Made by a program: the position numbers and the translations under genes
In this document: one piece after another, positions 40,205 through 58,748 of the stretch
How positions within the stretch are numbered: the stretch's first letter is position 1
Layout: each line of letters starts with the position of its first letter
The notes under the pieces: model-generated
Seen by the model: the letters and a program-made list of their open reading frames with translations, nothing else
The model's database searches: none
Told to the model about the DNA's origin: nothing
DNA from: a virus
Reading direction: 5' to 3' (one strand)
Length of the DNA: 64,000 nt
Virus record (IMG/VR): IMGVR_UViG_3300035698_009252
Coordinates: 32,001-96,000 of that record

Positions 40205-40615
40205 TTAGAACGCTCTTAGGTCCACCCTTCCCGATTCGGAACCGAAGGTATTTGAGAAAATCTTGTCATCATTGGGATGCCATCCGAACATCTTCAAGAA
40301 TTCCTGAAGGCCACGCGGCCCTTCGCCGTGGTAGCCAAAGCTGAACCCATTAAAAGTATGGGTTTCGGTGCTGCCATCCACCACCCACCTGAACCGTGCT
40401 TCCGTAATCCATTCAATGTGTTTGCTGTCGTAGGTAAAGGTCCCGTCGACCAAGAGATATCCAGCCTCCTTGATGCGCCGTGCATTTTCAAGGCTGTCGC
40501 GAGTCGCCCCTTCCCGCTTGAGCTGCAACATCTTCACGACCTGGAAGTCGCTTTTGAGAGCGACCAATTCCTTTGCCACCCCCAAAAGTTCTTTTGCCAC
40601 GGCTTGTCTGTTCAT
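40205..40615 (-). CDS. leader-family protein
   Basis: MNRQAVAKELLGVAKELVA. Confidence 0.8.
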   Translation of the reverse strand: MNRQAVAKELLGVAKELVALKSDFQVVKMLQLKREGATRDSLENARRIKEAGYLLVDGTFTYDSKHIEWITEARFRWVVDGSTETHTFNGFSFGYHGEGPRGLQEFLKMFGWHPNDDKIFSNTFGSESGRVDLRAF

Positions 40616-40962
40616 TACCAACCTCTCATGTATTCGGATATCTCATCACCGTACTTGCGCCAAAGTCGCCTAATCGGGGGAGCATTCAGCAGAAAATGCC
40701 CCTTAGCCGCTTCCAAGAATAGATAAACAGCATCTTTCCCCTTCGTCCCCCACTTGCCGTTCAGTTGCTTTTTAACAGCCGCTAAAGAGTCGACGACCTG
40801 CTTGACAATCGGGGCGGTATTCGGTCTGTCATCAACCGAAGCAAGAGCCCACTTCTCAAGACTCACATACAGCTTCGAAAGACGTTCTCGGGCCATTGGG
40901 TCGTCATCCGCAAACATCTCGGCAATCTCTACCAGTTCCTGTGCAATTGCTTCTCTTTTCAT
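40615..40962 (-). CDS. leader-family protein
   Basis: MKREAIAQELVEIAEMFA. Confidence 0.75.
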   Translation of the reverse strand: MKREAIAQELVEIAEMFADDDPMARERLSKLYVSLEKWALASVDDRPNTAPIVKQVVDSLAAVKKQLNGKWGTKGKDAVYLFLEAAKGHFLLNAPPIRRLWRKYGDEISEYMRGW

Positions 40963-40976
40963 ATCGCCCTCAATAT

Positions 40977-41555
40977 TTAGAACATCTTCATAAGGGATTT
41001 GGCATAAACCAACGTCAAAGCCCCCATAACCATACCCTCTTCATTGTTGTCGTCCTCGGCATCTAAGAGCATCATCCGCCCTTTGCGACGCATCGAGTCC
41101 AGCTTACCCTTGTCCATCCCTGACAACTTTTTGTAGACGGCCTTTGAAATCCTGTCTATCTCGGAACTGCTAAGGGATACTTCCAAATCCATATCCTTAA
41201 GAACGGATTTCAGCTTCCCCGCCGACAATAGCCCGGCACTATCACTCCGGTGTGCCAACTCGTCCTTGAGCATCCGTTCGATTATCTGATTAACATCACG
41301 GTCAGTCGTGTTGGCACGAGAAGGCGTCTGGAGCGCCCCCCTCGTCCCAACTTGGATATCCCACCAAACCCTTGTCCCGAGACTCCTGTCCGCCGGATTC
41401 CTTACGACATAGACATGGACCCCATCAATCTCTCCGGCCCAAGCATACGCGCCAAGACCTATATCCATTTTCCGAAGTCCCCTCAGAAAGTTCGGAGCCG
41501 CCATCAGTTCCTTAGCAACCCTCACCAACTCTTTTGCTACTGCTTGTCGGTTCAT
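40977..41555 (-). CDS. leader-family protein
   Basis: MNRQAVAKELVRVAKELMA. Confidence 0.8.
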   Translation of the reverse strand: MNRQAVAKELVRVAKELMAAPNFLRGLRKMDIGLGAYAWAGEIDGVHVYVVRNPADRSLGTRVWWDIQVGTRGALQTPSRANTTDRDVNQIIERMLKDELAHRSDSAGLLSAGKLKSVLKDMDLEVSLSSSEIDRISKAVYKKLSGMDKGKLDSMRRKGRMMLLDAEDDNNEEGMVMGALTLVYAKSLMKMF

Positions 41556-41566
41556 TACGTCCCCCC

Positions 41567-41956
41567 TCAGCTCACATAGGCTGTCACGTCGTACCGGTCC
41601 AGCGGGTCATCGACACTACCGGCCCCCGCCGCAATTACGACTCCGTACAGCACGGTACGACGGCCCTTTTCATTATTGAAATACACTTCGAACTTCCACG
41701 TCTTGCTCTCGGGGACCCCGTCCCGGTTATTGGTATAGAAGTTGTCCGTCATCGCCCAGTCGAATGCGGCAGAATCCAGGGTCTTCCAAATCTGGTTAAC
41801 CCAGCGCCAATCGGTATCCCGGAGAAGCCCCTTTGGAGAGTTACGATGAATCACCTTGTTCACCTCGCGCCGGGCCTTGACATTCTTCATACCGGTGAGG
41901 GAGTTCTCATCTTCGGCCAGGTTCTCGGCGATTCTTATGATTCGTTTTAGGTCCAT
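41567..41956 (-). CDS. leader-family protein (short variant leader)
   Basis: MDLKRIIRIAENLA; TGATG coupling. Confidence 0.7.
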   Translation of the reverse strand: MDLKRIIRIAENLAEDENSLTGMKNVKARREVNKVIHRNSPKGLLRDTDWRWVNQIWKTLDSAAFDWAMTDNFYTNNRDGVPESKTWKFEVYFNNEKGRRTVLYGVVIAAGAGSVDDPLDRYDVTAYVS

Positions 41957-42855
41957 CAGTGCCCCCATCCCAGTGCTGTTTGATATTTCGGCTTTCCGTC
42001 CCACAGGGTAGCGTGGGCATATGAATTGATACGAACCGAGTTGCCAGGACTCACGCGCTTTCTCATTTTCGGGCCAGTGAATTTGCCAGGAGCCGCTGAG
42101 ACATAAGCGGCACCTCTCTCCTCCTTGACAATCTTGGACCCTATTTCCCGGATAATCACGCTCTTTTCGCCCGCCTCGACGACCTCGTAGAAATCGATAT
42201 TGGTCTGGTCATAGCCCCACGAGGTGTACAAAATCGAGCCCACCACCAACCCGTGCTTGAATTCGTTCCGTTCCTTCTGGCGCTTCTGCTTGTCCTTGAG
42301 CCGCCCCTGGCGCTGCTCAATAGTCTCATTCACCTTCTTTTCAAACCGGTTCATATCCCGGAACCGGAAATGCCACAAGGGTTTCTGTGCCCGGCCCTGG
42401 AACGCAACACCGTAAAGATTGCCGTTCTGCTCATAGCTCCACGCCTCAATGTCCACGTCCGAGGGTATTTTAACTTCCTGGATGTTCTGATGGCGTGCCG
42501 GATTCGGACGATAGAACTCCCGCTTTTGAACCATCCGAAGTGCGGTCCTCTCTCTGGAGGAAGCAAAATACACCCTGCGAATGTCTTTCAGGAGCCTCCG
42601 AACCTTCTCCGGGGTCACGCTGTTCAGTCTCCCCGCGTCAATTGTGTAATCGTCACCGTCGAACAAGTCCCAGCGGCCACTGTCCTTCTCGATGAATACA
42701 CGCATCCCCTTCTGCCTGCGACTGATATACTCAAGGCCGTTACCCGCGTCCATGTTCGCCCATGCCCGGCTCACATCAAAATCGGGGTCACCACGACGAG
42801 CCATCAAGTCCTTCGCTACGGCCACCAACTCTTTTGCCACTGCTTTCACATTCAT
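41956..42855 (-). CDS. leader-family protein, multi-domain
   Basis: MNVKAVAKELVAVAKDLMA; C-terminal SWGYDQTNIDFYEVV domain. Confidence 0.8.
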   Translation of the reverse strand: MNVKAVAKELVAVAKDLMARRGDPDFDVSRAWANMDAGNGLEYISRRQKGMRVFIEKDSGRWDLFDGDDYTIDAGRLNSVTPEKVRRLLKDIRRVYFASSRERTALRMVQKREFYRPNPARHQNIQEVKIPSDVDIEAWSYEQNGNLYGVAFQGRAQKPLWHFRFRDMNRFEKKVNETIEQRQGRLKDKQKRQKERNEFKHGLVVGSILYTSWGYDQTNIDFYEVVEAGEKSVIIREIGSKIVKEERGAAYVSAAPGKFTGPKMRKRVSPGNSVRINSYAHATLWDGKPKYQTALGWGH

Positions 42856-42862
42856 AGTTCTC

Positions 42863-43283: not shown

Positions 43284-43309
43284 CCACCTATAGAGAGAAT
43301 ATCAATGAA
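43284..43309 (-). promoter_or_regulatory. conserved phage promoter-like motif, copy 2
   Basis: TTCATTGATAT-N7-ATAGGTGG. Confidence 0.7.
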
Positions 43310-43339: not shown

Positions 43340-43990
43340 CTACCCAGCAAATCGATTGCCCTTAGATGAGTTGTCCTTCAACCACAAGGGTTGAAGATTT
43401 TCCAATGCCCAGCACTCTCGGAACTGCTCATCATCTGGATTCTGCATGGAGAACCAACTTTTCGGCACAACATGGTCAACCTGCCACCCTTGCTTGCCTC
43501 CATAATTGTCCCAACTCATGCCATCCGAGAACTGCCCCTTCAAGTGGGCCATTAGCTCTTCCAATGTAAAATCGACCAGCTCTTCCCAATGACGACCGCC
43601 TTTGGAACTCCCGCCGTTTAGATGGTCACGCAAAGAATACCACACCTGGAAACCCACCCGCCGGGAGATTCGGATGCCTGGCTTACTCGTATATCGGCGA
43701 GAGGCGGCTGCTTGCAGTTCACGAGTCCGTGGCCGCTTCCCGTACTCCTTCGCATACACCCGTTGCCGGGCATTCCTCCGTTTTCGGAACTCCGGGTCGG
43801 CAGCATTCTTTCGATAACGAGCTAAAGCAGAAGCCTTCCGGGCCTCCTTGTTCTCCTGGTAACTCTGTTTACAATGCGCCTTGGCACAATCTCGACACCA
43901 GTTGAACAAGCCATCTTTGGCCTTACTATCCTTGCCGAACTCAGATACTACATCCTTCGGATGACCACATTTGGTACACCGTTTTTCCAT
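43340..43990 (-). CDS. HNH homing endonuclease-like protein
   Basis: N-terminal CxxC...CxxC; MSWDNYG..WQVDHVVP...NLQPLWLKDNSSKGN. Confidence 0.85.
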   Translation of the reverse strand: MEKRCTKCGHPKDVVSEFGKDSKAKDGLFNWCRDCAKAHCKQSYQENKEARKASALARYRKNAADPEFRKRRNARQRVYAKEYGKRPRTRELQAAASRRYTSKPGIRISRRVGFQVWYSLRDHLNGGSSKGGRHWEELVDFTLEELMAHLKGQFSDGMSWDNYGGKQGWQVDHVVPKSWFSMQNPDDEQFRECWALENLQPLWLKDNSSKGNRFAG

Positions 43991-43999
43991 AATATGCCT

Positions 44000-44025
44000 C
44001 CATCTATGGTCGGCATATCAAAGAA
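44000..44025 (-). promoter_or_regulatory. conserved phage promoter-like motif, copy 3
   Basis: TTCTTTGATAT-N7-ATAGATGG. Confidence 0.7.
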
Positions 44026-44028
44026 AAC

Positions 44029-44364
44029 TCAGTGAAAGCACATGAGACAGGCGGAGGGCATCAATAGTATCCATGAGACCACGGCGAAGCACATGCTCTT
44101 CAAACTACGAATGCTACTCACGAACTTCTGAGCCTTGACCGTCCCGGCACCGCCGAAAAACTGGGTTTTGGCGTGCCGGATATGTTCTTCGCGCATTTCG
44201 AAGACAAACACAACCTTCCGGTTTCCATTCGGGGACTGACCCGTCTCAGTCGTTACGAGAGGGAAATCCAGCGAGCACAAATAGGCCGCAAAATAAATGT
44301 CCGAAGTCCTATAGAGCTTCTTTTTAGCCTCAGACGCCCCGGACGTCTCCGTTTCCGTAGTCAT
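44029..44364 (-). CDS. DUF5659-like small protein
   Basis: YRTSDIYFAAYL...KVVFVFE...SIRSLKS. Confidence 0.6.
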   Translation of the reverse strand: MTTETETSGASEAKKKLYRTSDIYFAAYLCSLDFPLVTTETGQSPNGNRKVVFVFEMREEHIRHAKTQFFGGAGTVKAQKFVSSIRSLKSMCFAVVSWILLMPSACLMCFH

Positions 44365-44490
44365 GCCGCCGCCTCCCTTACCTGTTCGATTTCGTATTGC
44401 CATCTGTGAGAGAGTCAGAACGAACAGTGATGACATTTCCGCAACTCCCGAATCTTTGGCCTGTAAGGTCATTGAATCTGGCTTTTCTTT

Positions 44491-44778
44491 TCACTTGGCC
44501 TCCCTCACATCGCCGCCGCCGTAATCGTAAGCCACGGTTTCCACTGGGGCTTTGCGCCCCTTCATCCGTTTTGCTGCCTTCGCGTTGCCATTCCGCATGG
44601 ATTCTCCGAAGGTACTTTTCCGGTTAATACCACCGTCAATCGCTAAAGCGAACGCGCTGAAAACGCGGGAGGCTCGGCCCCCGCACTTGCCACATTTGAC
44701 AGTGCGGGGAGCCTCACCCATACGAAACGGCTTTTCTGCTCGCGTTTCGCAACCGTTGCACTCGAACTCGTACAGCAT
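44491..44778 (-). CDS. FmdB-like zinc-ribbon protein
   Basis: MLYEFECNGC...CGKCGG.ASRVFS. Confidence 0.75.
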   Translation of the reverse strand: MLYEFECNGCETRAEKPFRMGEAPRTVKCGKCGGRASRVFSAFALAIDGGINRKSTFGESMRNGNAKAAKRMKGRKAPVETVAYDYGGGDVREAK

Positions 44779-44781
44779 GGC

Positions 44782-45906
44782 TTACTCCGAGGCTACGGCT
44801 GTTCTGGTCACCTTCGTTGCCGTTTTGGCCTTGTTTTTCGACCCTCTCGGCCTACCCCTGCCCCGTCGAGGCGCTACTGCCGTTTTCCCGCCCGATTCGA
44901 GCTTTTCAAGGCGAGCCATAACAGCAGCCATGCCACCCTTCAACTCATCGTTCTCGGCCCGTAGAACGGCATTCTCGGCCTCTACAGCCACCTGAGCCCC
45001 TGCTTCCTTGGCCATGTCCGCCTCAAGGGCTTCCACGTCCGCATCTGACACAGTTGTGCCGGAAACGGCGAGCTGGGTTTCCCCAACGATTGAGGACGCG
45101 TCCGTGCCGCCAAGGACTTCCGTTGCCGCTTGCAGCTCTGGCGGGATGTCCTGGTCGATGACAGCCGCCGCCGTGGTGCCATCGGGGACTTCCACACCGG
45201 CCCGCTTGCGTGTCATTTCGACGTGCTTCTTGCGAACCTCGGCCTCGGCCCGCTTGCTTTCGGCATTGGCATCGGCTTCTTCCCGACTGGGAAGGTGTTG
45301 TCCCGCGTTCATGGGGATTTCGCTCCTGCCCACTCCCATACCAAGGCTGTCGTCATGGACCACCGGCATCGCCGCTCTCTGGCGCTTGAGAGCGACACGC
45401 TCGGCCATCGAAGCCATGTCGGTCTTGTCTGCCAAGTCGGCAAGCCTTTCCTCGACAGTCTCGTCGCCCTTGATGACTTCCATGGTCCTGTTGGCCGTCC
45501 GAGCACGGGCATCTGCACGCGAGGCTTCCTTTTCGGCCTGGTGGACCTTAGAGACTTGCGTATGGCGGATGTCAATGACCGGGTGGTCCGATGAATCATC
45601 CTGAACGATAGGCAAATCGTTGTTGGAACGACGAGGAGGGGCGTCCACAATCGTAGGAGCAATGCCTTTGACTTCGTCAAGCATCTCCGGCGAATATGGT
45701 ACAACCCAAGGGTCATCCGGGGTTTTCAGGGCTTGACGCTGGAGGATTTCCAGGTCACGGGTATCGTCGAACTTGCGTCCGTCGACGATGAGGATACCAC
45801 GCTCCTCATCGAGTTCAAGGACAGTCCCTCTTCCGAAGGTCTCCTTGATGTATCCGAGGTGCATTTGACTCGGAATAGTTAGAATCCATTTCGAATTCAT
45901 ATCCAT
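44782..45906 (-). CDS. hypothetical protein with acidic linker and basic C-tail
   Basis: 374 aa; AT-hook-like RGRGRPRG near the C-terminus. Confidence 0.7.
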   Translation of the reverse strand: MDMNSKWILTIPSQMHLGYIKETFGRGTVLELDEERGILIVDGRKFDDTRDLEILQRQALKTPDDPWVVPYSPEMLDEVKGIAPTIVDAPPRRSNNDLPIVQDDSSDHPVIDIRHTQVSKVHQAEKEASRADARARTANRTMEVIKGDETVEERLADLADKTDMASMAERVALKRQRAAMPVVHDDSLGMGVGRSEIPMNAGQHLPSREEADANAESKRAEAEVRKKHVEMTRKRAGVEVPDGTTAAAVIDQDIPPELQAATEVLGGTDASSIVGETQLAVSGTTVSDADVEALEADMAKEAGAQVAVEAENAVLRAENDELKGGMAAVMARLEKLESGGKTAVAPRRGRGRPRGSKNKAKTATKVTRTAVASE

Positions 45907-45978
45907 CTCCTCTATATGGTGTTATATTTCCAGGCTTTTCGCCTGACTCCCAGCGCACCATGCGCCGAAATCTCTCTA

Positions 45979-46539
45979 TCAACCGAGTTTTCCGGCCAAC
46001 TCAACAAGCATGCCATATTCAACCGGGTCTCGGAAAGCATCTTTTCCATCTTTTATGAGGGCCTTGACACGGTCCTTTACTGCATCCGCGCAGCCCTCGT
46101 AAAAGTATTTCTTCTGTTTGTCTATGGCGTCAAAAAGGTCATCATCCCCCAGCAAGGAATAGAGGGCGTCGCTAGGGTCGGTCTTCAAGCTGCTGGGCTC
46201 ATCACCCTGCCGCATGTTGTTGACCATCTTGACGATTTTATCAACGTCCCTGGAGTTGTTCGGTAACGCCCATGTCCCAGCAACTCGCGTGCTTCCCAAT
46301 TTCCCGTTCCAGGGATGGCGTATCTTCAATCGTTTCATTCCGACGCCGACGGCATCTTTAAGGTCAATGATATTACGGATGCCGCTCATCTCAGAGATAT
46401 ACCGTATCAGGCGGTCTCCGTCCCGACGGGATATACCCAAGTCAGTGACATATCTCTCAATCTGGCCCTCCGTAATACCGGACGAGACGAGAGCTTCGGC
46501 AACGGTTATCAGCCGCTTTGCTATCTTCTGGCTATCCAT
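45979..46539 (-). CDS. leader-family protein
   Basis: MDSQKIAKRLITVAEALVS. Confidence 0.75.
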   Translation of the reverse strand: MDSQKIAKRLITVAEALVSSGITEGQIERYVTDLGISRRDGDRLIRYISEMSGIRNIIDLKDAVGVGMKRLKIRHPWNGKLGSTRVAGTWALPNNSRDVDKIVKMVNNMRQGDEPSSLKTDPSDALYSLLGDDDLFDAIDKQKKYFYEGCADAVKDRVKALIKDGKDAFRDPVEYGMLVELAGKLG

Positions 46540-46604
46540 TTCGTTTCCCTTACAGACCAGGGCCAAGGCCAGAAAATATCCTGGCCCAGCCCATCGCCGT
46601 CAAG

Positions 46605-47018
46605 TTACGGAATTGTCACAATAGAACCACCAACGCCACCGAAGTTCGCGCCCGTGCCGTACCGGCGATTGCCTGTTGCGGCAATCAGGGTGTCGGACAA
46701 CGTCTTCTCTGCGTCCGTCATGGGGATTTTGTCGAGGTCCCGACCTACAGCTCCCAGCATCTCCACCAGGACGTACGTCGGCTCGCTGTCGATGTCCCCC
46801 TGATAACTTGAAGCGGCTGCCGTTACGCTCTTCTTGTTGAACGTCGTTTCTAACCATGACCGCGTACCCGTCTGAGTCTGCGGGTTCCAGATGGCCTTCA
46901 GGAACGTCTTGACTGCTGCCAATTCGACTCCCGTGGGCTCTGTGATTCTTGCATTGCGGGCAATGTTCCATACCCACCGTGAATACTGCCACCAACTACC
47001 TGTCGTGCTACCGGCCAT
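46605..47018 (-). CDS. hypothetical protein
   Basis: AAAGGAGG RBS; 137 aa. Confidence 0.7.
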   Translation of the reverse strand: MAGSTTGSWWQYSRWVWNIARNARITEPTGVELAAVKTFLKAIWNPQTQTGTRSWLETTFNKKSVTAAASSYQGDIDSEPTYVLVEMLGAVGRDLDKIPMTDAEKTLSDTLIAATGNRRYGTGANFGGVGGSIVTIP

Positions 47019-47137: not shown

Positions 47138-47416
47138 TTATTGAAATGTGTCCGGGTCCTTGAACGCATCAATGGTCTGACGCACTTCATTCGCCGTCCC
47201 CATGTTCACATCGGACGGGTCTGCGTCATCCATCTCCCGAACCAACGCTTCGCGGGCCTGCATCATCGCCTTAAACGGTTTGTCGGCCTTGGTCAGATAG
47301 TCCTGGTAATCCGTCCAGGCTTCATCTGCCTTCTTCAAGGCACGCACCAAGCCACCGGCTGCCGCAAGTTCTCTTGCCACGGCCACTAACTCTCTTGCTA
47401 TACGCGCATCGTTCAT
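47138..47416 (-). CDS. leader-family protein
   Basis: MNDARIARELVAVARELAA. Confidence 0.8.
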   Translation of the reverse strand: MNDARIARELVAVARELAAAGGLVRALKKADEAWTDYQDYLTKADKPFKAMMQAREALVREMDDADPSDVNMGTANEVRQTIDAFKDPDTFQ

Positions 47417-47423: not shown

Positions 47424-47642
47424 CTACATCTGGCTCAAAGCCCTTGCGATGTCCTTTTCCAGCCTAACCACCTTACGGTTTCTCATCTTCCTCGGGACAC
47501 CCCCGAGGGCTTTGAGGATATCGCTCTTCAATTCTTCTTGGACTTCAGGAGACAAGTCTCCGATTCCTCCTGCAAGCCGCTCGGCAGCCGTCAAGTCCTT
47601 CGCTACGGCCACTAACTCCCGAGCTATACGTGCGTCGTTCAT
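47424..47642 (-). CDS. leader-family protein
   Basis: MNDARIARELVAVAKDLTA. Confidence 0.8.
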   Translation of the reverse strand: MNDARIARELVAVAKDLTAAERLAGGIGDLSPEVQEELKSDILKALGGVPRKMRNRKVVRLEKDIARALSQM

Positions 47643-47864
47643 TTACCATTCCAGAGAGTTGTTCTTAACGGTTAAAGTCCGTGGCTTGACGTCCTCGATG
47701 GCCTTCGTCCTGCTCTTCTTTATCCACCACTTGCCCTTGTACTTGAACCGCTGGCCACTTCTCAGGTCCGGCCATGACGGACGGCCCCGGTCCATCTGAG
47801 GAGCCTTCGCCGTCAAGTCCTTGGCCACTGCTACCAGCTCGCGTGCTATACGTTGATTATCCAT
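47643..47864 (-). CDS. leader-family protein
   Basis: MDNQRIARELVAVAKDLTA. Confidence 0.8.
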   Translation of the reverse strand: MDNQRIARELVAVAKDLTAKAPQMDRGRPSWPDLRSGQRFKYKGKWWIKKSRTKAIEDVKPRTLTVKNNSLEW

Positions 47865-48118
47865 CAGGAAACCTCACTATTAAATCTTATGTGCAACTTG
47901 CTTTGTATCGCGTCGAGGTAATTCGTGGCGTCCAATCGGCCATGAAACTCATCCGCCATGTCAATCTCCCGGCCATAAACATCATAATCTATACCATCCT
48001 CGTCCAACAAGTCTGTCACCTTCTTCAGGTCCATTGTAGACCGGACACGAATCGTGATGGATGCCGTCAGCTTGCGTGCCACGGCTACCAATTCGCGTGC
48101 TATCTGTTGCCTGTTCAT
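47864..48118 (-). CDS. leader-family protein
   Basis: MNRQQIARELVAVARKLTA. Confidence 0.8.
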   Translation of the reverse strand: MNRQQIARELVAVARKLTASITIRVRSTMDLKKVTDLLDEDGIDYDVYGREIDMADEFHGRLDATNYLDAIQSKLHIRFNSEVS

Positions 48119-48480
48119 GACCTCCGATAGATGACGCTCAATGCCGCATTGAGTTCTTCGTCGCTTCCGTTAAATCCATTGGAGACGACGAACAGAGTCT
48201 TTTTCTTCATGTCGATGCGTGCCCGGTCATCGTAAATACGGCGCTGCTGGAACTTCCCGACAATTTCCGGCATCGCTCGAAGAATCTTTATGGCATCTTT
48301 CGCAGCCAATTCCTCCAGCTCGTCGGCAGCGTCCTGTACGAAAAAGAGGTGACCCTTCTCCACAGGCACCCGCGTCTCCCAGACGATGTTGCCATAAGAG
48401 ATGTATCTTTTCACAGAGGACAGCGCCGTCAACTCTCGGGCTGCTGCGACCAACTCTCTGGCTATCTGCTGGTTTTTCAT
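48115..48480 (-). CDS. leader-family protein
   Basis: MKNQQIARELVAAARELTA. Confidence 0.8.
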   Translation of the reverse strand: MKNQQIARELVAAARELTALSSVKRYISYGNIVWETRVPVEKGHLFFVQDAADELEELAAKDAIKILRAMPEIVGKFQQRRIYDDRARIDMKKKTLFVVSNGFNGSDEELNAALSVIYRRS

Positions 48481-50572: not shown

Positions 50573-51028
50573 TTATCGTTGCGGCGGGACAATAATTGTA
50601 ATCTTATCTCGGGGCCTAAGCCCGAGGCCCTGGACAACACGCTCCATGTCTCCGACTCGAATCACGAGTCTTTGTTCGGACTGGATTGTCAATCGGTTCG
50701 ATTCCAGTAGTGAAATTTTTCGGGTGCTCTCGTTGAATACGGCAAGTTGTTCCTTCTGCTCCATCGTCTGCCCATAATGCCCTAACGAGAAACTACGAGT
50801 TCCACTGATAGGCGGGACCCGTTCAACCCAATCCCCACGCTGTCCCGACCAGGAAAACAGATGGCCCCGTTCGGAACGAATGACTGTTCCCTTTAGGAAT
50901 CTCATATACCACGAGCCGAAACCAATCCTGAAATCCTTCACCGCCAGGAAATGGCCCAATGGCAATTCTGCCGCCACAAGTTCCCTTGCAACCGTCACCA
51001 GTTCCTTTACTATTCCCTGGTTGTCCAT
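50573..51028 (-). CDS. leader-family protein
   Basis: MDNQGIVKELVTVARELVA. Confidence 0.8.
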   Translation of the reverse strand: MDNQGIVKELVTVARELVAAELPLGHFLAVKDFRIGFGSWYMRFLKGTVIRSERGHLFSWSGQRGDWVERVPPISGTRSFSLGHYGQTMEQKEQLAVFNESTRKISLLESNRLTIQSEQRLVIRVGDMERVVQGLGLRPRDKITIIVPPQR

Positions 51029-51423
51029 TACCTTCTCCAGAAGCCCGCTCTCTTGCCAATAGCATCCAGCGCCCTATAAATGTCCTTTGGGCTTGGTATG
51101 TCTTCGTTAAATTTCTTACGGACGTTACGTATGATGCTGCCGTTGACCCATCCATCCACCGAAATAAACCATGGCTTGTTGACCGGCTTGAACAGGCTTA
51201 TGCGAACCTGGACGCCGTCCTTGCCACCCGCGCTATCCAGAATAAACCGAACACCACCAACGAACTTCTCTGGCCTCTCTATGACATACCCACGCGACTT
51301 GGCTTCAACCAGAAAATGCGTTGCTCCATCCACGAAGGCATCCATCCACTCGTCGGAAACAAGCCCGGCCATCAAGTCCCTTGCCACGGCCACTAATTCC
51401 CTAGCTATCTTGCGGTTGTCCAT
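51028..51423 (-). CDS. leader-family protein
   Basis: MDNRKIARELVAVARDLMA. Confidence 0.8.
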   Translation of the reverse strand: MDNRKIARELVAVARDLMAGLVSDEWMDAFVDGATHFLVEAKSRGYVIERPEKFVGGVRFILDSAGGKDGVQVRISLFKPVNKPWFISVDGWVNGSIIRNVRKKFNEDIPSPKDIYRALDAIGKRAGFWRR

Positions 51424-51668
51424 CAGTTCTGCTCCCTCCACGCCTTGTCCAGGTAATCGGCAATCTCGTCGATGTCCTCCGCCATCCCCCGAAGCCTACG
51501 AAGAACTTGTCTCAATTCGAGTTGCTTGGCCGCGTTCTGAAGCGTTTTTAGGGAGAATAGAATGCGCTGACTGGCGCTATGGATATCATTGACGTCGGGA
51601 TTAGACTGACCAGCCGTCAAGTCCTTAGCCACGGCTACCAACTCTCTTGCCACTGATTTACTGTTCAC
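51423..51668 (-). CDS. leader-family protein
   Basis: (M)NSKSVARELVAVAKDLTA. Confidence 0.8.
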   Translation of the reverse strand: MNSKSVARELVAVAKDLTAGQSNPDVNDIHSASQRILFSLKTLQNAAKQLELRQVLRRLRGMAEDIDEIADYLDKAWREQN

Positions 51669-51937
51669 GAATCTACCTCTTTTATCGCCTTGCGGACATC
51701 ACTGTCGGCCTTCGTCACGGCCCGAGTCAGCTTGCCCATTGCGGTGTTGATTTTCCGGGTGTACTCGGGAGGTTCCTTGAAGGTGTAAGAGTCCTCGGAG
51801 AACCAAAGAGCACCGACATCCTCCGCAAGTTGTTGAAGTGTCTCAACAGCCTGTCTCCGCTCATCCCACGGGTTACGGGCAGCCGTCAACTCCCTCGCCA
51901 CAGATACCAACTCTTTTGCCACGAATTCGTCGTTCAT
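51665..51937 (-). CDS. leader-family protein
   Basis: MNDEFVAKELVSVARELTA. Confidence 0.8.
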   Translation of the reverse strand: MNDEFVAKELVSVARELTAARNPWDERRQAVETLQQLAEDVGALWFSEDSYTFKEPPEYTRKINTAMGKLTRAVTKADSDVRKAIKEVDS

Positions 51938-52326
51938 CGAAATCTCCTCGCCACTTTGAGAAGTGTATCTTTTATCCACTTTGCCGCATAAGCAGCAATT
52001 TCATTCCTTCGGTGTGGCTCCACATATCGGAAGGTTTCCCTTGCCTGTTCTCTACCACCCGGCACCTTTTTCGTCGAGAAAATGACCTGCCACTCCCCTG
52101 AATCAGACACTCTGTCACCGAAATCAGTCTGGGCAACATCATCGTCGAACCAGATATGGGCATAGAGAGGAATGTCCAGCCCCGACACATTGAACTCAAT
52201 GGAGACGTGCTTGCCGGGCCGGATTTTCAAAAGGGCCGGAGCCATGCTCCCGGCCTTTCGAGGACGAGATACAGACAAGTCCTTGGCCACTGCTATCAGC
52301 TCGCGTGCAATCTTCTGTTCGTTCAT
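51934..52326 (-). CDS. leader-family protein
   Basis: MNEQKIARELIAVAKDLS. Confidence 0.8.
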   Translation of the reverse strand: MNEQKIARELIAVAKDLSVSRPRKAGSMAPALLKIRPGKHVSIEFNVSGLDIPLYAHIWFDDDVAQTDFGDRVSDSGEWQVIFSTKKVPGGREQARETFRYVEPHRRNEIAAYAAKWIKDTLLKVARRFR

Positions 52327-52333: not shown

Positions 52334-52747
52334 CTATCTTATCGCGCTCTCCAACATGTCGATTATATCCTGGTCGTAATCGTTCCGGCTTGACTCAACA
52401 TCCTTCGGATTCCTCGACATCTTGCGCACGGAATCCCGAAATTCACTGTAATCCGTATCCTCTCCGATTGAGTTTGCGATGTGCCTTCCATCCCTCCAAT
52501 CTCCATACAGAACGATGTCTATATCCTCATACCCCTTGGAGCGGAGCGCATCTACCCACGCTTTAATAAGGTCATCCCGGTTGTCATGGGACAGCATATC
52601 GCGACTGCCCCAAAACCCCATACCACCAGACATTTTCTTGCCTAGTTTGAAAATTTCCCGGTATGACAGTTTTCTCGCAACCCGGCTTCCAGCCATCAAC
52701 TCCCGTGCCAGGGCTGCCAGTTCTTTCGCCAAATCATCCGACTTCAT
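52334..52747 (-). CDS. leader-family protein
   Basis: MKSDDLAKELAALARELMA. Confidence 0.8.
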   Translation of the reverse strand: MKSDDLAKELAALARELMAGSRVARKLSYREIFKLGKKMSGGMGFWGSRDMLSHDNRDDLIKAWVDALRSKGYEDIDIVLYGDWRDGRHIANSIGEDTDYSEFRDSVRKMSRNPKDVESSRNDYDQDIIDMLESAIR

Positions 52748-52748
52748 T

Positions 52749-53189
52749 TTACCAATCTCCCGGTTTCTCAAGGTCGTACTTGTCGGCAAGCCACTCGGTG
52801 AACTCTTTGGGGCTCTCGCCACTATCATACCCCGTACGGAACTGGCTTTCAGAGAAAATGTCATTCCTGGCCAGCATGTAATCCTTCTGCATGATGGCAA
52901 TCACTTTGTCTTGCCACTCCCGGTACGACATGCCCTGCTTCTTGGCCACATCCAGCATCGGAGAATAGACATAAGCTGCCACGCCGAGTTCGGCAATTAC
53001 CCGCTCCGTCCTCAAGAGCTTACTCTTAAAGGCACGAGCTTCGTCCTGCAAACCCGCCTTGTTCAAATCACCAACGAGTTTGGAACAGGCTTGAACGAGA
53101 TTCCGGCTGGCTTGCTCCACCTCACGGCCACGGTCGTTTTTACCCGCCACACGGCTTGCGATTCTCGAAAAACGGTCTTCTTTGTTCAT
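52749..53189 (-). CDS. leader-family protein (variant leader)
   Basis: MNKEDRFSRIASRVA. Confidence 0.7.
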   Translation of the reverse strand: MNKEDRFSRIASRVAGKNDRGREVEQASRNLVQACSKLVGDLNKAGLQDEARAFKSKLLRTERVIAELGVAAYVYSPMLDVAKKQGMSYREWQDKVIAIMQKDYMLARNDIFSESQFRTGYDSGESPKEFTEWLADKYDLEKPGDW

Positions 53190-53199
53190 CGGGTTCACC

Positions 53200-53829
53200 T
53201 CAATCCACTGCACAATATTGATGATACGGTATTCCAGCCTTGGACATCGAATTCAGAACTTCCCCGAATGTTGCTCGCTTTATCCAGCTCTCGTTGTCCG
53301 TTGCCCAACGATAGAACATCTTGATTGACGTCTTTTTCGCGCCACGAACTGTCGGGATGCAGGTCGGCTCGTTGAACTTGTCATCCTTGTCACGGACCGA
53401 GAACGTATCAAAATTGGCTTCGATGGAGACGTGCTTGCCATCTATCTTGATGGGGGCAAACCCACCAGGCGGAACATCTACACCCCGGAGAACGCGCTCG
53501 TCTGTATTGGCGCTGTTGTAACTTGACGCCTCGTTGATAGCCTCGACGCCCTTCTCCATGATTTTGACGGCCTGCGCGTAATTCCGGGCGCGAGCCAAGT
53601 CATCCATCATGTCCTCGACTTCGGCCTTAGCGTCGTCGGCATAATCCAGGTCGTAAGCGGAGAACTGGTTGCACCTCTTACCACGCTTGCCCGCATTGGT
53701 CAAGTCAGTCACCTGGACTGACGAGCGGTACCGATGGATACGGATGGAGCCCTGCTCGACAGTCTTGCCGACACTTAGGCCACCAAGAAGGCTCTTTGCG
53801 ATTTTCAGGAGTACCCGAGCTTCGTCCAT
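53200..53829 (-). CDS. leader-family protein (variant leader)
   Basis: MDEARVLLKIAKSLL. Confidence 0.7.
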   Translation of the reverse strand: MDEARVLLKIAKSLLGGLSVGKTVEQGSIRIHRYRSSVQVTDLTNAGKRGKRCNQFSAYDLDYADDAKAEVEDMMDDLARARNYAQAVKIMEKGVEAINEASSYNSANTDERVLRGVDVPPGGFAPIKIDGKHVSIEANFDTFSVRDKDDKFNEPTCIPTVRGAKKTSIKMFYRWATDNESWIKRATFGEVLNSMSKAGIPYHQYCAVD

Positions 53830-54200
53830 TAGATGTAGCCCCTCTGTCCAGGCTCTTCGTTCTTGATATAGTCGGCTTTGCCCTTAATGGCCTCAACCAA
53901 CTTCATCACCTTTTCCTCGTCACCCTCGATGCCGATGTAGCTGGCGTAATCCGGCTCGGGGCTACGTTTGCCGTTGTAGTACTCACCGGAGATGGGGTCA
54001 TTCGCGGTAACGACTAGGATGCCTGGACCCTTCCAGACCCATCCCTTGCTCGTCTTCCGGGGCCTTGTACTCACGCCGACACTCTTGAGAGCCTGAATCC
54101 ACTTGGATGCCCGGATTTCGGTCAAGTCAAACCCGTGCTCATACGCTGTAAGCTTCCGGGCCACCCGTATCAGTTCTCTCGCGATTTTCTGCGTTGTCAT
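53829..54200 (-). CDS. leader-family protein
   Basis: MTTQKIARELIRVARKLTA. Confidence 0.8.
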   Translation of the reverse strand: MTTQKIARELIRVARKLTAYEHGFDLTEIRASKWIQALKSVGVSTRPRKTSKGWVWKGPGILVVTANDPISGEYYNGKRSPEPDYASYIGIEGDEEKVMKLVEAIKGKADYIKNEEPGQRGYI

Positions 54201-54204: not shown

Positions 54205-55179
54205 TTAGCCCCTTGTCATCTTGATACGTTCGTACCCCTTGCGTTCCTTCGTCCGCAGGTGTTTTTCACAAGCGGCAATCGCCTTGGTCAAACTGCTTAC
54301 GGGACCACCGAAATACTTCGCGGTCAAATCGTAGGCCCGCTCGATGATACCGATACGGCCCGAGCAATTCCAGCCAACGTAGACCTCTTCTCCCATGTCG
54401 TTTTCGACCGAGTACACGACATAATAATGGTATTTGTTGGCATTGGCCCTCGGGTCAACAATGACCAGGTAGGACGACCACCTTCGGTCCAAGTCTCGTG
54501 GTCTTGCAGACACACCGCCGTACTCAGCAAGCGTGGCCACAACCTTTATACGCATCTTCTTGGAGAGCGCCGGTGCATAACTCGTCAGGGACTGCTTGAC
54601 TTCCTTATTGCGCATTCTTATGTCCACGTCGCGCCGGATGGGCTCCCAGTCAGCCTTTTTGACCTTCTTCTTGCACTTGACACAATAGCCAGTCTGCTCC
54701 AGGACCTTCGTGCCACAGTCCGGGCACTTGAAAGTTTCAGCCGCCTTTTTGACCTTTTTCTTGCACTTGACACAGAAACCAGTCTGCTCCAGGACCTTCG
54801 TTCCGCAGTCCGGGCACTTGAAAGTTTCAGCAGCCTTCTTGTCCTTCTTTTCCTTGTCCTTCAGGAAATCGGGCTTGGGCTCATTCTCCTTGCCATCATT
54901 GTCCTTATCCTTGTCCTTCCACTGCTTCTTGAAGGCTTCGGGGACCTCACCTTTCCCAGACACCAATGCCTCGGCGATGGCAACCAGACGTTCGGAGACG
55001 GAGGACTTCTTGTCCTTCTTTTCCTTGTCTTTCAGGAAGTCAGGCTTCGGCTCATTCTCTTTGCCGTCGTTGTCCTTATCCTTGTCTTTCCACTGCTTCT
55101 TGAAAGCCTCGGGGACTTCACCCTTACCTGCCAGCAACCTTGCCACCGCTATCAGCTCTTTCGCTATACGTCTATTCAT
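54205..55179 (-). CDS. leader-family protein with duplicated charged module, two zinc ribbons and a WGR-like domain
   Basis: MNRRIAKELIAVARLLA; 2x CPDCG..CVKC; NANKYHY..SGRIG..KERKGY. Confidence 0.8.
   Translation of the reverse strand: MNRRIAKELIAVARLLAGKGEVPEAFKKQWKDKDKDNDGKENEPKPDFLKDKEKKDKKSSVSERLVAIAEALVSGKGEVPEAFKKQWKDKDKDNDGKENEPKPDFLKDKEKKDKKAAETFKCPDCGTKVLEQTGFCVKCKKKVKKAAETFKCPDCGTKVLEQTGYCVKCKKKVKKADWEPIRRDVDIRMRNKEVKQSLTSYAPALSKKMRIKVVATLAEYGGVSARPRDLDRRWSSYLVIVDPRANANKYHYYVVYSVENDMGEEVYVGWNCSGRIGIIERAYDLTAKYFGGPVSSLTKAIAACEKHLRTKERKGYERIKMTRG
54653..54832. repeat. 90-bp tandem duplication (zinc-ribbon module x2)
   Basis: Near-identical units 54653-54742 and 54743-54832. Confidence 0.9.
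54835..55130. repeat. 171-bp-period duplication (leader + Lys/Asp-rich module x2)
   Basis: GKGEVPEAFKKQWKDKDKDNDGKENEPKPDFLKDKEKKDKK occurs twice. Confidence 0.9.
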
Positions 55180-55472
55180 GTCAATTCTCCTATGGCACGC
55201 TCTAGCGCCTTTTGCGTTTTCTCCAAATTATCTACTTCGCGAGTCAGTTTTGACAACTTTTGCAGGGCCTTCCGGTCAAGTGTCGCATCCACGGCGTTGT
55301 TTATACGGGACCGGAGTGAGTGAACCATCAACTTCAATGGCTCGGTATCCTCTTGAGCCCATTGCATATAGCGAGCGACATCCATCACCTTGACCCCTGT
55401 CAATTCCTTCTTACCGGAGATAAGTTCCTTGGCTATGGCCACCAGTCTGCGTGCTACACGTTCTCTATTCAC
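55176..55472 (-). CDS. leader-family protein
   Basis: (M)NRERVARRLVAIAKELIS. Confidence 0.8.
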   Translation of the reverse strand: MNRERVARRLVAIAKELISGKKELTGVKVMDVARYMQWAQEDTEPLKLMVHSLRSRINNAVDATLDRKALQKLSKLTREVDNLEKTQKALERAIGELT

Positions 55473-55484: not shown

Positions 55485-55889
55485 TTACAGCATTCTCTTT
55501 ATTGCTCTCTCAAGTCTACCCACGTCCATTACCCTTTTCAGCTTGACGGAAACCAGGAACGGGTATCCTTGTTCCCTCGGGCGGAGCGCCCGAATCCTCC
55601 CGCTATTCGCAAATATGGACAATCCCGCCTTCCCCAAGACATCTCCCAGTCTGGCAAAAACACGTTCGGCCTCCTTCTCTACCTCTCCCTGCATGTCTAA
55701 CGTGTCGATGGCATCCAGGTCCTCTCCCCGCAAGTAATCCCCCTCGGGGGTGACAATCGTTCTCAGGGCAATAGAATCCTCCGATACCGACACCAGCTCA
55801 AAACTGGGCCACTCTGGCTCGGATGCCGCGACATTCCGCCCAACCAGTTCACGCGCTACAGCAGCCAGTTCCTGTGCTATTTTATCCAT
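55485..55889 (-). CDS. leader-family protein
   Basis: MDKIAQELAAVARELV. Confidence 0.8.
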   Translation of the reverse strand: MDKIAQELAAVARELVGRNVAASEPEWPSFELVSVSEDSIALRTIVTPEGDYLRGEDLDAIDTLDMQGEVEKEAERVFARLGDVLGKAGLSIFANSGRIRALRPREQGYPFLVSVKLKRVMDVGRLERAIKRML

Positions 55890-56573
55890 TTACCGGCCTT
55901 TACTGATTTCAAATCGGTCATTTGCTTTGAACCAAATACGTCCAAGCTGTGAGCCATTCGTCCCGCCAGTCACATGTTCCCAATTCAAATCGACCAGGCC
56001 CCCTATGATACCGTCCTTCAAGATTCTCTCGGTGAAGACCACACTCAGGGTCAGCTTTTTGATGGTCATGCCCATAATACCGACGTCATCCTCCAGCCCG
56101 GTCTCCTCGAAGTAGAGATAGCCACGCTGACGCTTGGGTGCCCCCAATGAGGGCTTGTGTCCGAAAGCACTACGGATGGCCGCTTCCACTTTTCCCTTTG
56201 AAGCCATAAGCGTTTTTACGCGATCTTCCACGGCGGCGTCCTCTATCGCAGACCCACCCACCAAATTCTTGGCCAATCCCACCAATTCCTGAGCCATCTT
56301 GTTATCTTTCATGTTCAATCTCCGAGGGCTTGAAGCCCTTCTCATCGCTTTTTCAACCACCTTTGTCATAATCTTCTCCTGCTCTCGAAGGGGAAGCGAT
56401 TCAAAATCTGTGGGTACATCCGTACGCCTTGTCTTATTGTACAGCTCGCCATACCCAAGGGCCTTGAAAGCCTTATCGATATCCATATGTTTCTCATGGA
56501 ATCGGCTCATAACGTCAACAGCGATATCCTCGGCGCTATCCTCATAGTCTTGCTTCGAGCCACGGGCGTTCAT
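55890..56573 (-). CDS. protein with an internal leader copy
   Basis: Internal MKDNKMAQELVGLAKNLV. Confidence 0.7.
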   Translation of the reverse strand: MNARGSKQDYEDSAEDIAVDVMSRFHEKHMDIDKAFKALGYGELYNKTRRTDVPTDFESLPLREQEKIMTKVVEKAMRRASSPRRLNMKDNKMAQELVGLAKNLVGGSAIEDAAVEDRVKTLMASKGKVEAAIRSAFGHKPSLGAPKRQRGYLYFEETGLEDDVGIMGMTIKKLTLSVVFTERILKDGIIGGLVDLNWEHVTGGTNGSQLGRIWFKANDRFEISKGR

Positions 56574-57613
56574 TTCAACTCCACCATTACGGTAATCCAA
56601 CTCTTCTCCCCATCCCCATAGTTTATGCGGACAATGGCCTGCCGGTATGGAGCAAGTAGCGGCTCAAGTATCTTTTTGAAGTTGTCAGTCTCCCTTTCGA
56701 CCATATCCCGGTACGTGCTATACCCAACATCGCTTTCTCCCTCTTTCGGCAAATCGGACCGATAGGAACCTTTAATACGGGTATTGCCACTGGAAATCTT
56801 CGCGTCATCCTTCATCCAGGGACTCTTCCTGGAAATGGCCGTATCGATGGCGTTGCTAACGCCCTTCGCTATTTTCTCCCTATTCGCAATGGCATCCGTC
56901 TCGCCCTTCAATCCACTCCACCCCTTCAGGGCCTCCAACATCTTCTGAGCCGCTTGTTTAGGGGACATTGACGTTGGTGTGCCATAGCTGCCAAACACTA
57001 CCCCAGGCCCCTCTGCCGATGTGGTATTTTCGGTAAGCGTAATTTCACGCTTCATCCCATCCGAATTTCTTCCATCAACGCGCAAGATGACCTGGTACAT
57101 CACCCCGGATGGATAGTCCTTCTTCTGCCACGGAATCACTTCCAGGGCCTTCGGGTCTTCCAGTTTCGAGCGAATAATGCGAACGACGGACTGGGAGAAT
57201 TTCTTAAGGGCCGGAGGAATGGCCTTTTTGGAAAGGGTTTGGACCACCTTCTGGGCCTGGCCGATTTGCCTGGTAAACCGCTTTATCATCACGTCGGCAT
57301 CTTTAACAGCCCGCTGTACGGTCTTGTCTTCGGGGAAGTTCGTCAGGATTTGCTGCACTTCCTTCTGCACCCGGTAAGCCGATTGAATGCCATCCTGGGC
57401 CTTCTTGAGCACGACAAACTGGCCATCCACCTCCGGGTCGAGACCTGCCTGGAAGTGCATGGAAAATGTCCCGATGGTGTCGTCGATATTGTCGGCCAAC
57501 TCATCAAGAGTACCCAAAGTGCGTAGAAGCCCCTTCAGGAGCCCTTTAGAGGCATCTGCTTCAAGCCGCCGGGCAATATTTGACATGCGTACTGGAAAGG
57601 CAATTTTCTTCAT
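56570..57613 (-). CDS. hypothetical protein (variant leader)
   Basis: RMSNIARRLEA near the N-terminus; 347 aa. Confidence 0.75.
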   Translation of the reverse strand: MKKIAFPVRMSNIARRLEADASKGLLKGLLRTLGTLDELADNIDDTIGTFSMHFQAGLDPEVDGQFVVLKKAQDGIQSAYRVQKEVQQILTNFPEDKTVQRAVKDADVMIKRFTRQIGQAQKVVQTLSKKAIPPALKKFSQSVVRIIRSKLEDPKALEVIPWQKKDYPSGVMYQVILRVDGRNSDGMKREITLTENTTSAEGPGVVFGSYGTPTSMSPKQAAQKMLEALKGWSGLKGETDAIANREKIAKGVSNAIDTAISRKSPWMKDDAKISSGNTRIKGSYRSDLPKEGESDVGYSTYRDMVERETDNFKKILEPLLAPYRQAIVRINYGDGEKSWITVMVELK

Positions 57614-57616
57614 TTT

Positions 57617-57862
57617 TTACTCGTTTGTCAGAGCCGGGAACACGTCGTAATCGTTCTGCAAAGACTTTACCGCTTCCCCAACCTTATCCGCCGGGATTTC
57701 CCCGGTGACCCTCTGGCCCCTCACTTTCAAGCGGGCTGACGGGAAGTCCGCAGAAAATGCTTCGGCCTCATCCTGCCCAACGAAGTACAGCTCGACTTCA
57801 ACATTCTGGGATGCAGTCGTCATCCGTTCTGCAATCCTCTGTAACCTGGTATTGTCGCTCAT
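57617..57862 (-). CDS. leader-family protein (variant leader)
   Basis: MSDNTRLQRIAERMT. Confidence 0.7.
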   Translation of the reverse strand: MSDNTRLQRIAERMTTASQNVEVELYFVGQDEAEAFSADFPSARLKVRGQRVTGEIPADKVGEAVKSLQNDYDVFPALTNE

Positions 57863-58485
57863 CTCGCGTTCCTTCCTTGAGTGGTAATACGAATGCCTTG
57901 GGCCATGATTTTGACCAAGCCCTTCTCTGCCAGGCTCTCGATAATGGGGTTGTCTTTGCCGTACTCGCCGAGCCGGTGCCGCAGGAACTCTTGCGCCCGG
58001 TAACTGCTCTTGATGCCTCCAACAATACCCAGAGCCGCCTTCTCGTCCGGGGTGAGGATAACATCGTCATCCGGCTCCGGCATTAACTTGTCGACATCTC
58101 CCGGTCGCACGTAGATACGAAGGAAATTGCCCCGGCCACCAGCTTCCCCGGCAATAACCACGGAACCATTCGGCACATTAAAGGATTCCTCCCGGTCGAG
58201 AGCCCGGTCCTCAAAGGGATTTGAGCCACCCCACGAGCCTTGCTGAGCGTCACTGATGCGACCAGTACTCAAGTCAACCGTCACGGACAGGGCTCTATTC
58301 CCCTCAAATGCCGTCGAAACGGAATACTTTGAGTCGTAGATGACCTCGATGTCCCGTCTGCCGTACCTGAGCCGTTTTAAGGCCCTTTGAACGGCATCAG
58401 GGAGGTCCCTAACGGCTACATGTATTCCACCCATGGCCTTAAGAGAGATTTTCCCTGCAATATGGACAATTCTACGTTCGTCCAC
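57859..58485 (-). CDS. hypothetical protein (variant leader), winged-helix-like C-terminus
   Basis: (M)DERRIVHIAGKIS; LAEKGLVK..IRITTQGRN. Confidence 0.7.
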   Translation of the reverse strand: MDERRIVHIAGKISLKAMGGIHVAVRDLPDAVQRALKRLRYGRRDIEVIYDSKYSVSTAFEGNRALSVTVDLSTGRISDAQQGSWGGSNPFEDRALDREESFNVPNGSVVIAGEAGGRGNFLRIYVRPGDVDKLMPEPDDDVILTPDEKAALGIVGGIKSSYRAQEFLRHRLGEYGKDNPIIESLAEKGLVKIMAQGIRITTQGRNAR

Positions 58486-58496
58486 GGCAGCCCCCT

Positions 58497-58748
58497 TTAC
58501 GCCTCGGCCAATACCTGCTCCAGGGCACCCACCAGGTCTTCAACCGTGGAGTTCGGGCGAATCACGCCAATGCCGAACTGGTTCAGCTTCCGGCGCTTCT
58601 TCTGGCTCAGTTTGTTGAGTTTCGTCCGAAGGTTACGGATACGCCCCGCAAATGCCTCGTCCACTTCCTCGCCGTCATCGGCTGCTGTCAACTCGCGAGC
58701 CAGTGAAAGGAGCCTCTTCGCCGCCTGAATTCTCTTCGTGTTGGTCAT
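58497..58748 (-). CDS. leader-family protein
   Basis: RIQAAKRLLSLARELTA. Confidence 0.75.
   Translation of the reverse strand: MTNTKRIQAAKRLLSLARELTAADDGEEVDEAFAGRIRNLRTKLNKLSQKKRRKLNQFGIGVIRPNSTVEDLVGALEQVLAEA

Follow-up and report, generated by a model that had tools for sequence, protein, structure and literature searches.

The window analyzed here is a stretch of 64,000 nucleotides (nt), bases 32001-96000 of the 139,603-bp virus record IMGVR_UViG_3300035698_009252, and the coordinates of the gene array described below are positions in this window. The record was rated 43% complete by CheckV, for which reason it is regarded as a fragment of a jumbo phage, and all of its genes lie on the minus strand. 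At 40205-58748, 33 of 38 neighboring genes carry in some form the same amphipathic helix of about 19 residues, hereafter the tag, which reads M-N/D-x-x-x-I-A-R/K-E-L-V-A-V-A-K/R-E/D-L-T-A and has the consensus MNxQxIARELVAVAKELTA. The tag is selected as a peptide, modular, lineage-specific and exchangeable between orthologous bodies, i.e., the remaining parts of the tagged proteins.

Counted gene by gene, the tag stands at residue 1-5 in 23 genes (22-36 bits with a hidden Markov model, HMM), occurs only internally in two, is shortened at the N-terminus of eight and is absent from five, exactly the 23 full, eight short and two internal copies that a preliminary description of this DNA had listed. 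A regular expression (regex) for the helix matched 24 times on the minus strand and 0 times on the plus strand; all matches fell in window 40600-58724, and none was found elsewhere in the 139.6-kb record. In the record, the HMM built from these matches detected 28 copies scoring at least 8 bits; reversed-sequence controls gave 0. The tag is real as observed, statistically solid and wider than first noted. The genes of the array are listed below in amino acids (aa), with the evidence for each tag; type B denotes a second tag, found in the phage LR745208 and treated further on.

58497-58748, minus strand: tagged gene, 83 aa, tag offset 3 residues (HMM 22.0 bits)
57859-58485, minus strand: 208 aa, short form MDERRIVHIAGKI (regex; LR745208 orthologue with type B tag)
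57617-57862, minus strand: 81 aa, short form RLQRIAERM (regex)
56570-57613, minus strand: 347-aa conserved family, short form (alignment of orthologues with canonical, short or type B tag)
55890-56600, minus strand: 236 aa, internal tag near residue 101 (HMM 11.6 bits)
55485-55889, minus strand: tagged gene, 134 aa (HMM 27.5 bits)
55176-55472, minus strand: tagged gene, 98 aa (HMM 27.0 bits)
54205-55179, minus strand: tagged gene, 324 aa (HMM 24.5 and 6.4 bits; Pfam DZR 1e-5, WGR 7e-5)
53829-54200, minus strand: tagged gene, 123 aa (HMM 29.2 bits)
53200-53829, minus strand: 209 aa, short form RVLLKIAKSLL (by eye; LR745208 orthologue with type B tag)
52749-53213, minus strand: 154 aa, short form FSRIASRVAGK (by eye only)
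52334-52747, minus strand: tagged gene, 137 aa (HMM 23.0 bits)
51934-52326, minus strand: tagged gene, 130 aa (HMM 29.3 bits)
51665-51937, minus strand: tagged gene, 90 aa (HMM 31.1 bits)
51423-51668, minus strand: tagged gene, 81 aa (HMM 30.8 bits)
51028-51423, minus strand: tagged gene, 131 aa (HMM 33.2 bits)
50573-51028, minus strand: tagged gene, 151 aa (HMM 29.8 bits)
49852-50559, minus strand: 235 aa, internal tag at residues 87-103 (HMM 22.8 bits)
49385-49855, minus strand: 156 aa, short form ERIATIARNL (regex)
49075-49332, minus strand: tagged gene, 85 aa (HMM 30.4 bits)
48477-49073, minus strand: tagged gene, 198 aa (HMM 33.4 bits)
48115-48480, minus strand: tagged gene, 121 aa (HMM 32.1 bits)
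47864-48118, minus strand: tagged gene, 84 aa (HMM 35.6 bits)
47643-47864, minus strand: tagged gene, 73 aa (HMM 36.4 bits)
47424-47642, minus strand: tagged gene, 72 aa (HMM 31.6 bits)
47138-47416, minus strand: tagged gene, 92 aa (HMM 28.3 bits)
45979-46539, minus strand: tagged gene, 186 aa, within the backbone-gene span 43340-47018 (HMM 24.8 bits)
43340-47018, minus strand: untagged backbone genes (137, 374, 95 and 147 aa) and an HNH endonuclease, conserved in the relatives G001, G010, G014 and L125
42863-43273, minus strand: 136 aa, short form ERIKRITRQV (by eye only)
41956-42855, minus strand: tagged gene, 299 aa, body phrog_37844 (HMM 26.1 bits)
41567-41956, minus strand: 129 aa, short form KRIIRIAENL (regex; G001 orthologue canonical)
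40977-41555, minus strand: tagged gene, 192 aa (HMM 30.5 bits)
40615-40962, minus strand: tagged gene, 115 aa (HMM 23.5 bits)
40205-40615, minus strand: tagged gene, 136 aa (HMM 28.7 bits)

The short form equals the tag minus one helical turn and scores below 2 bits with the HMM. It is counted as real because 5 of 15 non-canonical genes have its pattern, [RKQ][IVLM]xx[IVLM][AG]xx[LVIM], no more than 12 residues from the start, an excess over the background of 0.56 per 1000 residues, and because orthologues alternate between the two forms: the gene at 41567-41956 is short here and canonical in G001, and the 347-aa family has both.

Where different tag copies have identical residues, 39.8% of pairs also agree in their codon (30.6% expected), which bears out the synonymous variation reported earlier, and nucleotide identity at codon positions 1, 2 and 3 was 0.53, 0.65 and 0.37. 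Since synonymous codons are nearly random, the tag is conserved at the peptide level. It is scarcely credible, then, that a nucleic-acid signal is being kept, with the conserved 5' coding sequence acting as a translation-initiation element or a cassette recombination site. Such a signal would suit an element at the start of nearly every gene, and the close packing of the genes, described before as tight coupling and found here as intergenic gaps of mostly -31 to +14 nt, is consistent with translational coupling. The codon data contradict it, however, with third positions 37% identical against 53% and 65% and codon choice near-random; no stretch of DNA identity is long enough for homologous recombination, and the same peptide also occurs internally and C-terminally.

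The hydrophobic moment of the tag is strong (mean muH 0.62, in the top 4% of control 14-mers), its mean hydrophobicity is 0.07, and a charged residue occurs every 3-4 positions. The uncharged hydrophobic core of at least 10 residues by which a Sec or Tat signal peptide is recognized is absent from the tag. Hydrophobic residues are spaced in a heptad-like manner (I1, L5, V8, L12) with flanking Ala, the triplet A-R/K-E is found within the helix without being invariant, and there is no conserved Cys, Ser or Tyr.

The bodies are hydrophilic, mostly basic and 72-347 residues long, and once the tag was masked no pair of them matched at BLASTP E<0.1; they are as unrelated to one another as had been claimed. 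The body of the 299-aa protein, phrog_37844, recurs tag-free in unrelated phages, namely one of Paraglaciecola and prophages of Streptococcus. Of the 23 canonical cargo genes, only about 6 have a homologue in readable relatives, and the untagged array genes form a conserved backbone; the array is therefore an accessory-gene expansion in a conserved late backbone.

A profile of the first 30 residues, searched against 1.84 billion representative proteins (E<=0.001), showed that the tag heads at least 290 protein clusters from metagenomes. Of the best 152 clusters, 134 have a helix that begins no more than 8 residues from the N-terminus (median protein length 107 residues) and 22 have the tag more than once; a few proteins end with the tag. 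Neither Pfam nor PHROGs assigned a function to any of 148 tagged metagenomic proteins, and Pfam found no MuF or other head-morphogenesis domain in these 148 or in 10 window proteins. The leader itself is absent from Pfam and PHROGs. The tag peptides are missing from 50,697 GenBank phage records, no cultured relative with the tag was found there, megablast of the array against GenBank phages gave zero matches, and a literature search for the tag peptides returned no relevant mention. The tag is undescribed and specific to one phage lineage.

Within this lineage copy number varies strongly. Phages with a 70-97% identical major capsid protein carry from 0 to about 28 copies, and IMG/VR contigs that share the capsid protein carry 14, 10, 8, 4 and then 1-4. 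Zero copies were found in the group with 70% capsid identity, in Tunturiibacter phage Tunturi_5, in Bacillus phage G and in LR745208. In this record a second, looser cluster of tag-like N-termini lies at genome 695-5939 (HMM 14.7 and 6.3 bits at genome 2490 and 3683).

LR745208 is a 485-kb uncultured phage whose capsid protein is 69% identical to that of the present record and which lacks the tag described so far (type A). Eleven unrelated LR745208 proteins carry instead a very well conserved tag of another sequence, M(T)TLRSKLIRLAHxNPxLRPxLLPLLKEA (type B).

LR745208.1, L212-L236 (e.g., L231:18171-18575, minus strand) and also L250-L281: type B tagged loci

About two dozen other large viral contigs carry type B as well. 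Three orthologous body families, those of window 57859-58485, 53200-53829 and 56570-57613 (the 347-aa family), have at one and the same position either type A (or its short form) or type B, depending on the phage. The tag thus follows the phage lineage and not the cargo, and it is a swappable, lineage-specific address. Such behavior would be expected of an address that a co-evolving component of the phage reads. The modular leader proposed in the preliminary description is borne out by this exchange on orthologues, together with peptide-level selection, unrelated soluble bodies and the tag-free homologues of one body.

An ordinary expanded paralogue family, in which the helix would merely be the best-kept element of diverging duplicates with no shared targeting, appears distinctly improbable. 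Tandem arrays whose copy number differs among relatives are in keeping with it, and in the 347-aa family the tag runs on into a long bundle helix. Bodies of 72 to 347 aa with no detectable similarity and unlike predicted secondary structure argue against it, as do the tag-free homologues of one body in unrelated phages, the non-homologous tags on orthologous bodies, and the scrambling of synonymous sites while the peptide is kept.

The 347-aa family was modeled with confidence by AlphaFold2 (AF2), at a predicted local distance difference test score (pLDDT) of 88.7. In the model three long helices accompany an alpha/beta domain. One of them has 51 residues and the tag as its free N-terminal end, and its partner helices have 31 and 34 residues. 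The predicted free helix end fits an exposed docking element. A fold search of the PDB with this model gave nothing, with template modeling scores below 0.3 over the whole model, and in a viral structure library its only neighbors were uncharacterized proteins of the jumbo phages PaBG, Yoloswag, Motura and phiRSL1. Relatives of the protein were not found in GTDB genomes. Some relatives have extra domains N-terminal to the tag, e.g., one resembling a nucleoside deoxyribosyltransferase.

Because it also occurs internally and C-terminally, the tag is best described as an interaction helix and not as a strictly N-terminal signal. One possible partner is the tag itself, if tags pair with one another in coiled coils or helical bundles, so that homo- or hetero-oligomers form and a separate receptor is not needed. 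The heptad-like pattern would suit such pairing, as would four metagenomic proteins with paired tags, either in tandem or at opposite ends (P0003, P0009, P0010, P0026), and a scaffold-like small protein that ends in the tag. The AF2 model of P0009, with a tag at both ends, was not confident (pLDDT 44), and multi-tag proteins are equally explicable as in-frame fusions of adjacent tagged genes. Self-association alone also leaves unexplained why orthologues in another lineage have exchanged the helix for a quite different one, and we regard it as quite unlikely; it could be combined with capsid loading through a tagged scaffold-like adaptor.

In the record, transcription runs from the large terminase, portal, CCA-adding enzyme and head maturation protease (genome 114556-115620, phrog_18299 match at 3e-11) to two acidic scaffold-like proteins, a decoration protein and an HK97-type major capsid protein (phrog_2522, 4e-53). 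An intein-bearing RecQ helicase, an RNA locus with tRNA-Met and a Ro60/TROVE gene separate these head genes from the array, downstream of which lie neck and tail genes, including a collagen-like tail fiber, and then replication genes. The placement given earlier, directly upstream of the head-tail genes, holds for the neck and tail genes; it does not hold for the capsid, protease, portal and terminase genes, which lie 20-40 kb upstream of the array and outside the window. The N-terminus of the CCA-adding enzyme (genome 119816-121330) looks tag-like by eye and was dropped as a candidate with an HMM score of only 0.6 bits.

Eight copies of a 25-nt promoter-like motif, TTCTTTGATA-N7-YATAGGTRGA, were found, all on the coding strand and all between genome 69 and 114 kb. 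The motif stands at the head of the array, three times within it, before the scaffold gene and in the neck module, so that array and structural genes do have it in common, as the preliminary description stated. The motif scan (TTGATA-N7-YATAGG) gave the following sites:

59067-59085, minus strand: promoter-like motif, array head
49351-49369, minus strand: promoter-like motif, within array
44003-44021, minus strand: promoter-like motif, within array
43287-43305, minus strand: promoter-like motif, within array
37217-37235, minus strand: promoter-like motif, neck/tail module
genome 114199, 99568 and 97885, coding strand: promoter-like motif, remaining sites

The 3' half of the motif resembles the CTATAGG start region of T7-type promoters. 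A search of the 43%-complete fragment for a T7-type RNA polymerase (PF00940) gave no match, but the control searches were silent too, and scans for sigma-70 promoters and terminators stayed at chance level.

The head operons of eight phages were examined (G000, G001, G004, G006, G008, G010, G014 and, with its own tag, LR745208), and in 8 of 8 the protease-scaffold-capsid operon contains or adjoins tagged small genes. In G000, G004 and G006 a small protein has a scaffold-like N-terminal motif and a C-terminal tag. The C-terminal tail of the type B protease keeps the tag core [LM]IRLA[SRK]L in five phages. LIRLA occurs nine times in the 460,000 six-frame residues of LR745208, in seven tags, one protease tail and one other place. 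The type B profile scores 1.5-3.8 bits on type B protease tails, while at least 2 bits is reached in only 0.4% of control windows and type A phages' protease tails remain below -1.9. The scaffold-like proteins of the type A and type B lineages are not detectably similar, in a background of 69% capsid protein identity; such divergence would fit a scaffold that co-evolves as the partner of the tag, though as a consistency argument only.

That the tag loads cargo into the phage head is the most plausible explanation and quite possible, if still short of probable. The tag would then be a docking address, a short amphipathic helix with a single phage-encoded binding partner, through which it would bring many unrelated, fast-changing accessory proteins to the same place, most likely the assembling head. 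Docking might take place on the scaffold or the inner capsid surface during prohead assembly; the cargo would be enclosed, possibly trimmed by the head maturation protease, and would enter the host together with the DNA. Head-operon placement, the common promoter-like motif, an encoded protease and the type B protease tail are the circumstantial evidence that indicates the capsid; the partner, the destination and any cleavage or effector role are inferred. In its full form, the proposal that huge phages of this capsid lineage practice programmable delivery, with lineage-exchangeable helical tags (so far types A and B) read by a co-evolving head-assembly component and dozens of quickly replaced accessory proteins loaded as cargo and injected, is rather doubtful.

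Several observations weigh against capsid loading. The terminal L-x-A after which cleavage had been suggested is found in only about 15 of 22 tag copies, and no conserved L/I-x-E or other demonstrable cleavage motif ends the tag. RecQ helicase, RNA genes and the Ro60-like gene part the array from the head operon, and in this record tagged genes near head genes number 2 against about 2.2 expected, which is not significant. Copies had been expected among late genes only: the strong ones do lie in the array, but the weak cluster at genome 695-5939 is far from structural genes and has no promoter-like motif. The homologues of phrog_37844 sit in non-structural neighborhoods, one of them among DNA-metabolism genes, and with internal and C-terminal positions a general interaction helix fits as well as a capsid signal. 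A resemblance of the type A tag to type A protease tails was rejected as too weak (6.2 and 2.5 bits in two phages, about 0 in three).

Some of these points would suit docking on a hub other than the capsid that recruits accessory proteins, such as a phage or host chaperone, a replication or translation factory, the Ro60/RNA machinery, or a scheduled modifying or degrading enzyme. Modularity and lineage specificity fit such a hub equally well, and the N-terminal, internal and C-terminal tag positions, the adjoining Ro60/TROVE gene and RNA locus, and the homologue of one body among DNA-metabolism genes in another phage speak for it. No candidate partner was found for a hub of this kind, the tag offers no conserved Cys, Ser or Tyr for modification, and radical-SAM genes are absent from this fragment and do not adjoin tagged genes in relatives. 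Nor would such a hub account for head-operon placement, the common promoter-like motif or the type B protease tail. We place this explanation on the unlikely side.

The closest known parallel to capsid loading by a tag is found in phage T4, where diverse internal proteins are directed to the scaffolding core by N-terminal propeptides of 10-19 residues, which gp21 cleaves off (PMC9026906, PMC3012670). As in the T4 capsid-targeting sequence (CTS) of IPI, IPII, IPIII and Alt, a short N-terminal peptide precedes unrelated, mostly basic, fast-changing proteins, and in T4 the peptide functions independently of the cargo (PMC9026906, PMC3012670); a prohead protease is encoded in both. The tag differs in having no similarity to MKTYQEFIAE and no L/I-x-E site, in marking about 25-33 genes of one array against 3-4 in T4, and in occurring also internally and C-terminally; furthermore, the capsid here is HK97-like and related to that of phage G, not T4-like. 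With sequence, cleavage rule, capsid lineage and scale all unlike, the tag is not a member of the T4 CTS system, though the logic would be the same.

Encapsulin cargo-loading peptides likewise dock diverse cargo on the inner face of an HK97-fold shell. These peptides are usually C-terminal, are extended in conformation and carry another motif (G-S-L-type), whereas the tag is predicted to be helical and was N-terminal in 134 of 152 clusters. To our knowledge, no common conserved N-terminal helix has been reported for the inner-body and ejection proteins of phiKZ-like and SPN3US-like jumbo phages, whose prohead proteases cut at S/A/G-x-E. Many head-packed proteins of these phages are processed by the prohead protease (PMC5694885, PMC7411985).

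Leaders of ribosomally synthesized and post-translationally modified peptides are similar in that one conserved leader stands before many hypervariable bodies encoded in arrays. Here, in contrast, the bodies are folded proteins of 50-330 residues, there are no conserved modifiable residues, and there is no linked maturase gene: a radical-SAM maturase (PF04055) was not matched in the present fragment (G000, 43% complete) or in G014, and in G001, G010 and LR745208, where PF04055 did match, the matching genes are not neighbors of tagged ones. In HK97 gp4, the herpesvirus protease/scaffold and the P22 scaffold, a terminal amphipathic helix brings the protein into the procapsid. The tag core LIRLA in the protease tail of type B phages recalls this arrangement, which differs in that the helix there serves one or two assembly proteins and here dozens of accessory proteins, and in that type A is only weakly similar to the protease tail.

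If the tag is a capsid address, the T4 internal-protein principle would gain in scale, with a large and rapidly changing arsenal in place of three or four proteins, and would also apply in another capsid lineage. Dark-matter phage proteins would then become, in their hundreds, candidate first-minute effectors in counter-defense or host takeover, and a compact tag with which foreign proteins could be packed into phage particles would be at hand. Even with another destination, a tag of about 19 residues on at least 290 clusters that is replaced wholesale in a sister lineage represents an undescribed sorting code of uncultured jumbo phages, one that is directly testable.

Some tagged proteins have additional features. 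The 324-aa protein (54205-55179) consists of two tandem units of tag and Lys/Asp-rich linker, followed by two zinc ribbons and a WGR domain. An ESM Atlas search with the 192-aa protein gave no usable match. The metagenomic protein P0010 (76 aa) is composed of tag, linker and tag only, and in P0050, P0004 and P0025 the tag is directly followed by the repeated motif (E/D)FPTQDA(Y/M)DKY(M/L)K(E/N)HPDAD(K/R)S, which is absent from this genome and matches Pfam Phage_blade (PF24647) weakly. The weak Phage_blade match in one metagenomic protein was discarded as due to a separate repeat that this genome lacks.

The endonuclease gene inside the array, beside the untagged backbone genes, is HNH/endonuclease VII-like (phrog_1035, 4e-18; window 43340-43990). 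Inteins sit in different essential genes in different relatives (G001, L112-L115; L209; L003:6872-9391): RecQ is interrupted here, the head protease in both G001 and G008, and in G001 the large terminase as well. The major capsid protein (L003:14798-15658, genome 110798-111658) is unusually conserved, with 70-97% identity among contigs of 140 to 485 kb that have few other detectable proteins in common; its identity to the counterparts in Tunturiibacter phage Tunturi_5 and Bacillus phage G is 48% and 38%, respectively.

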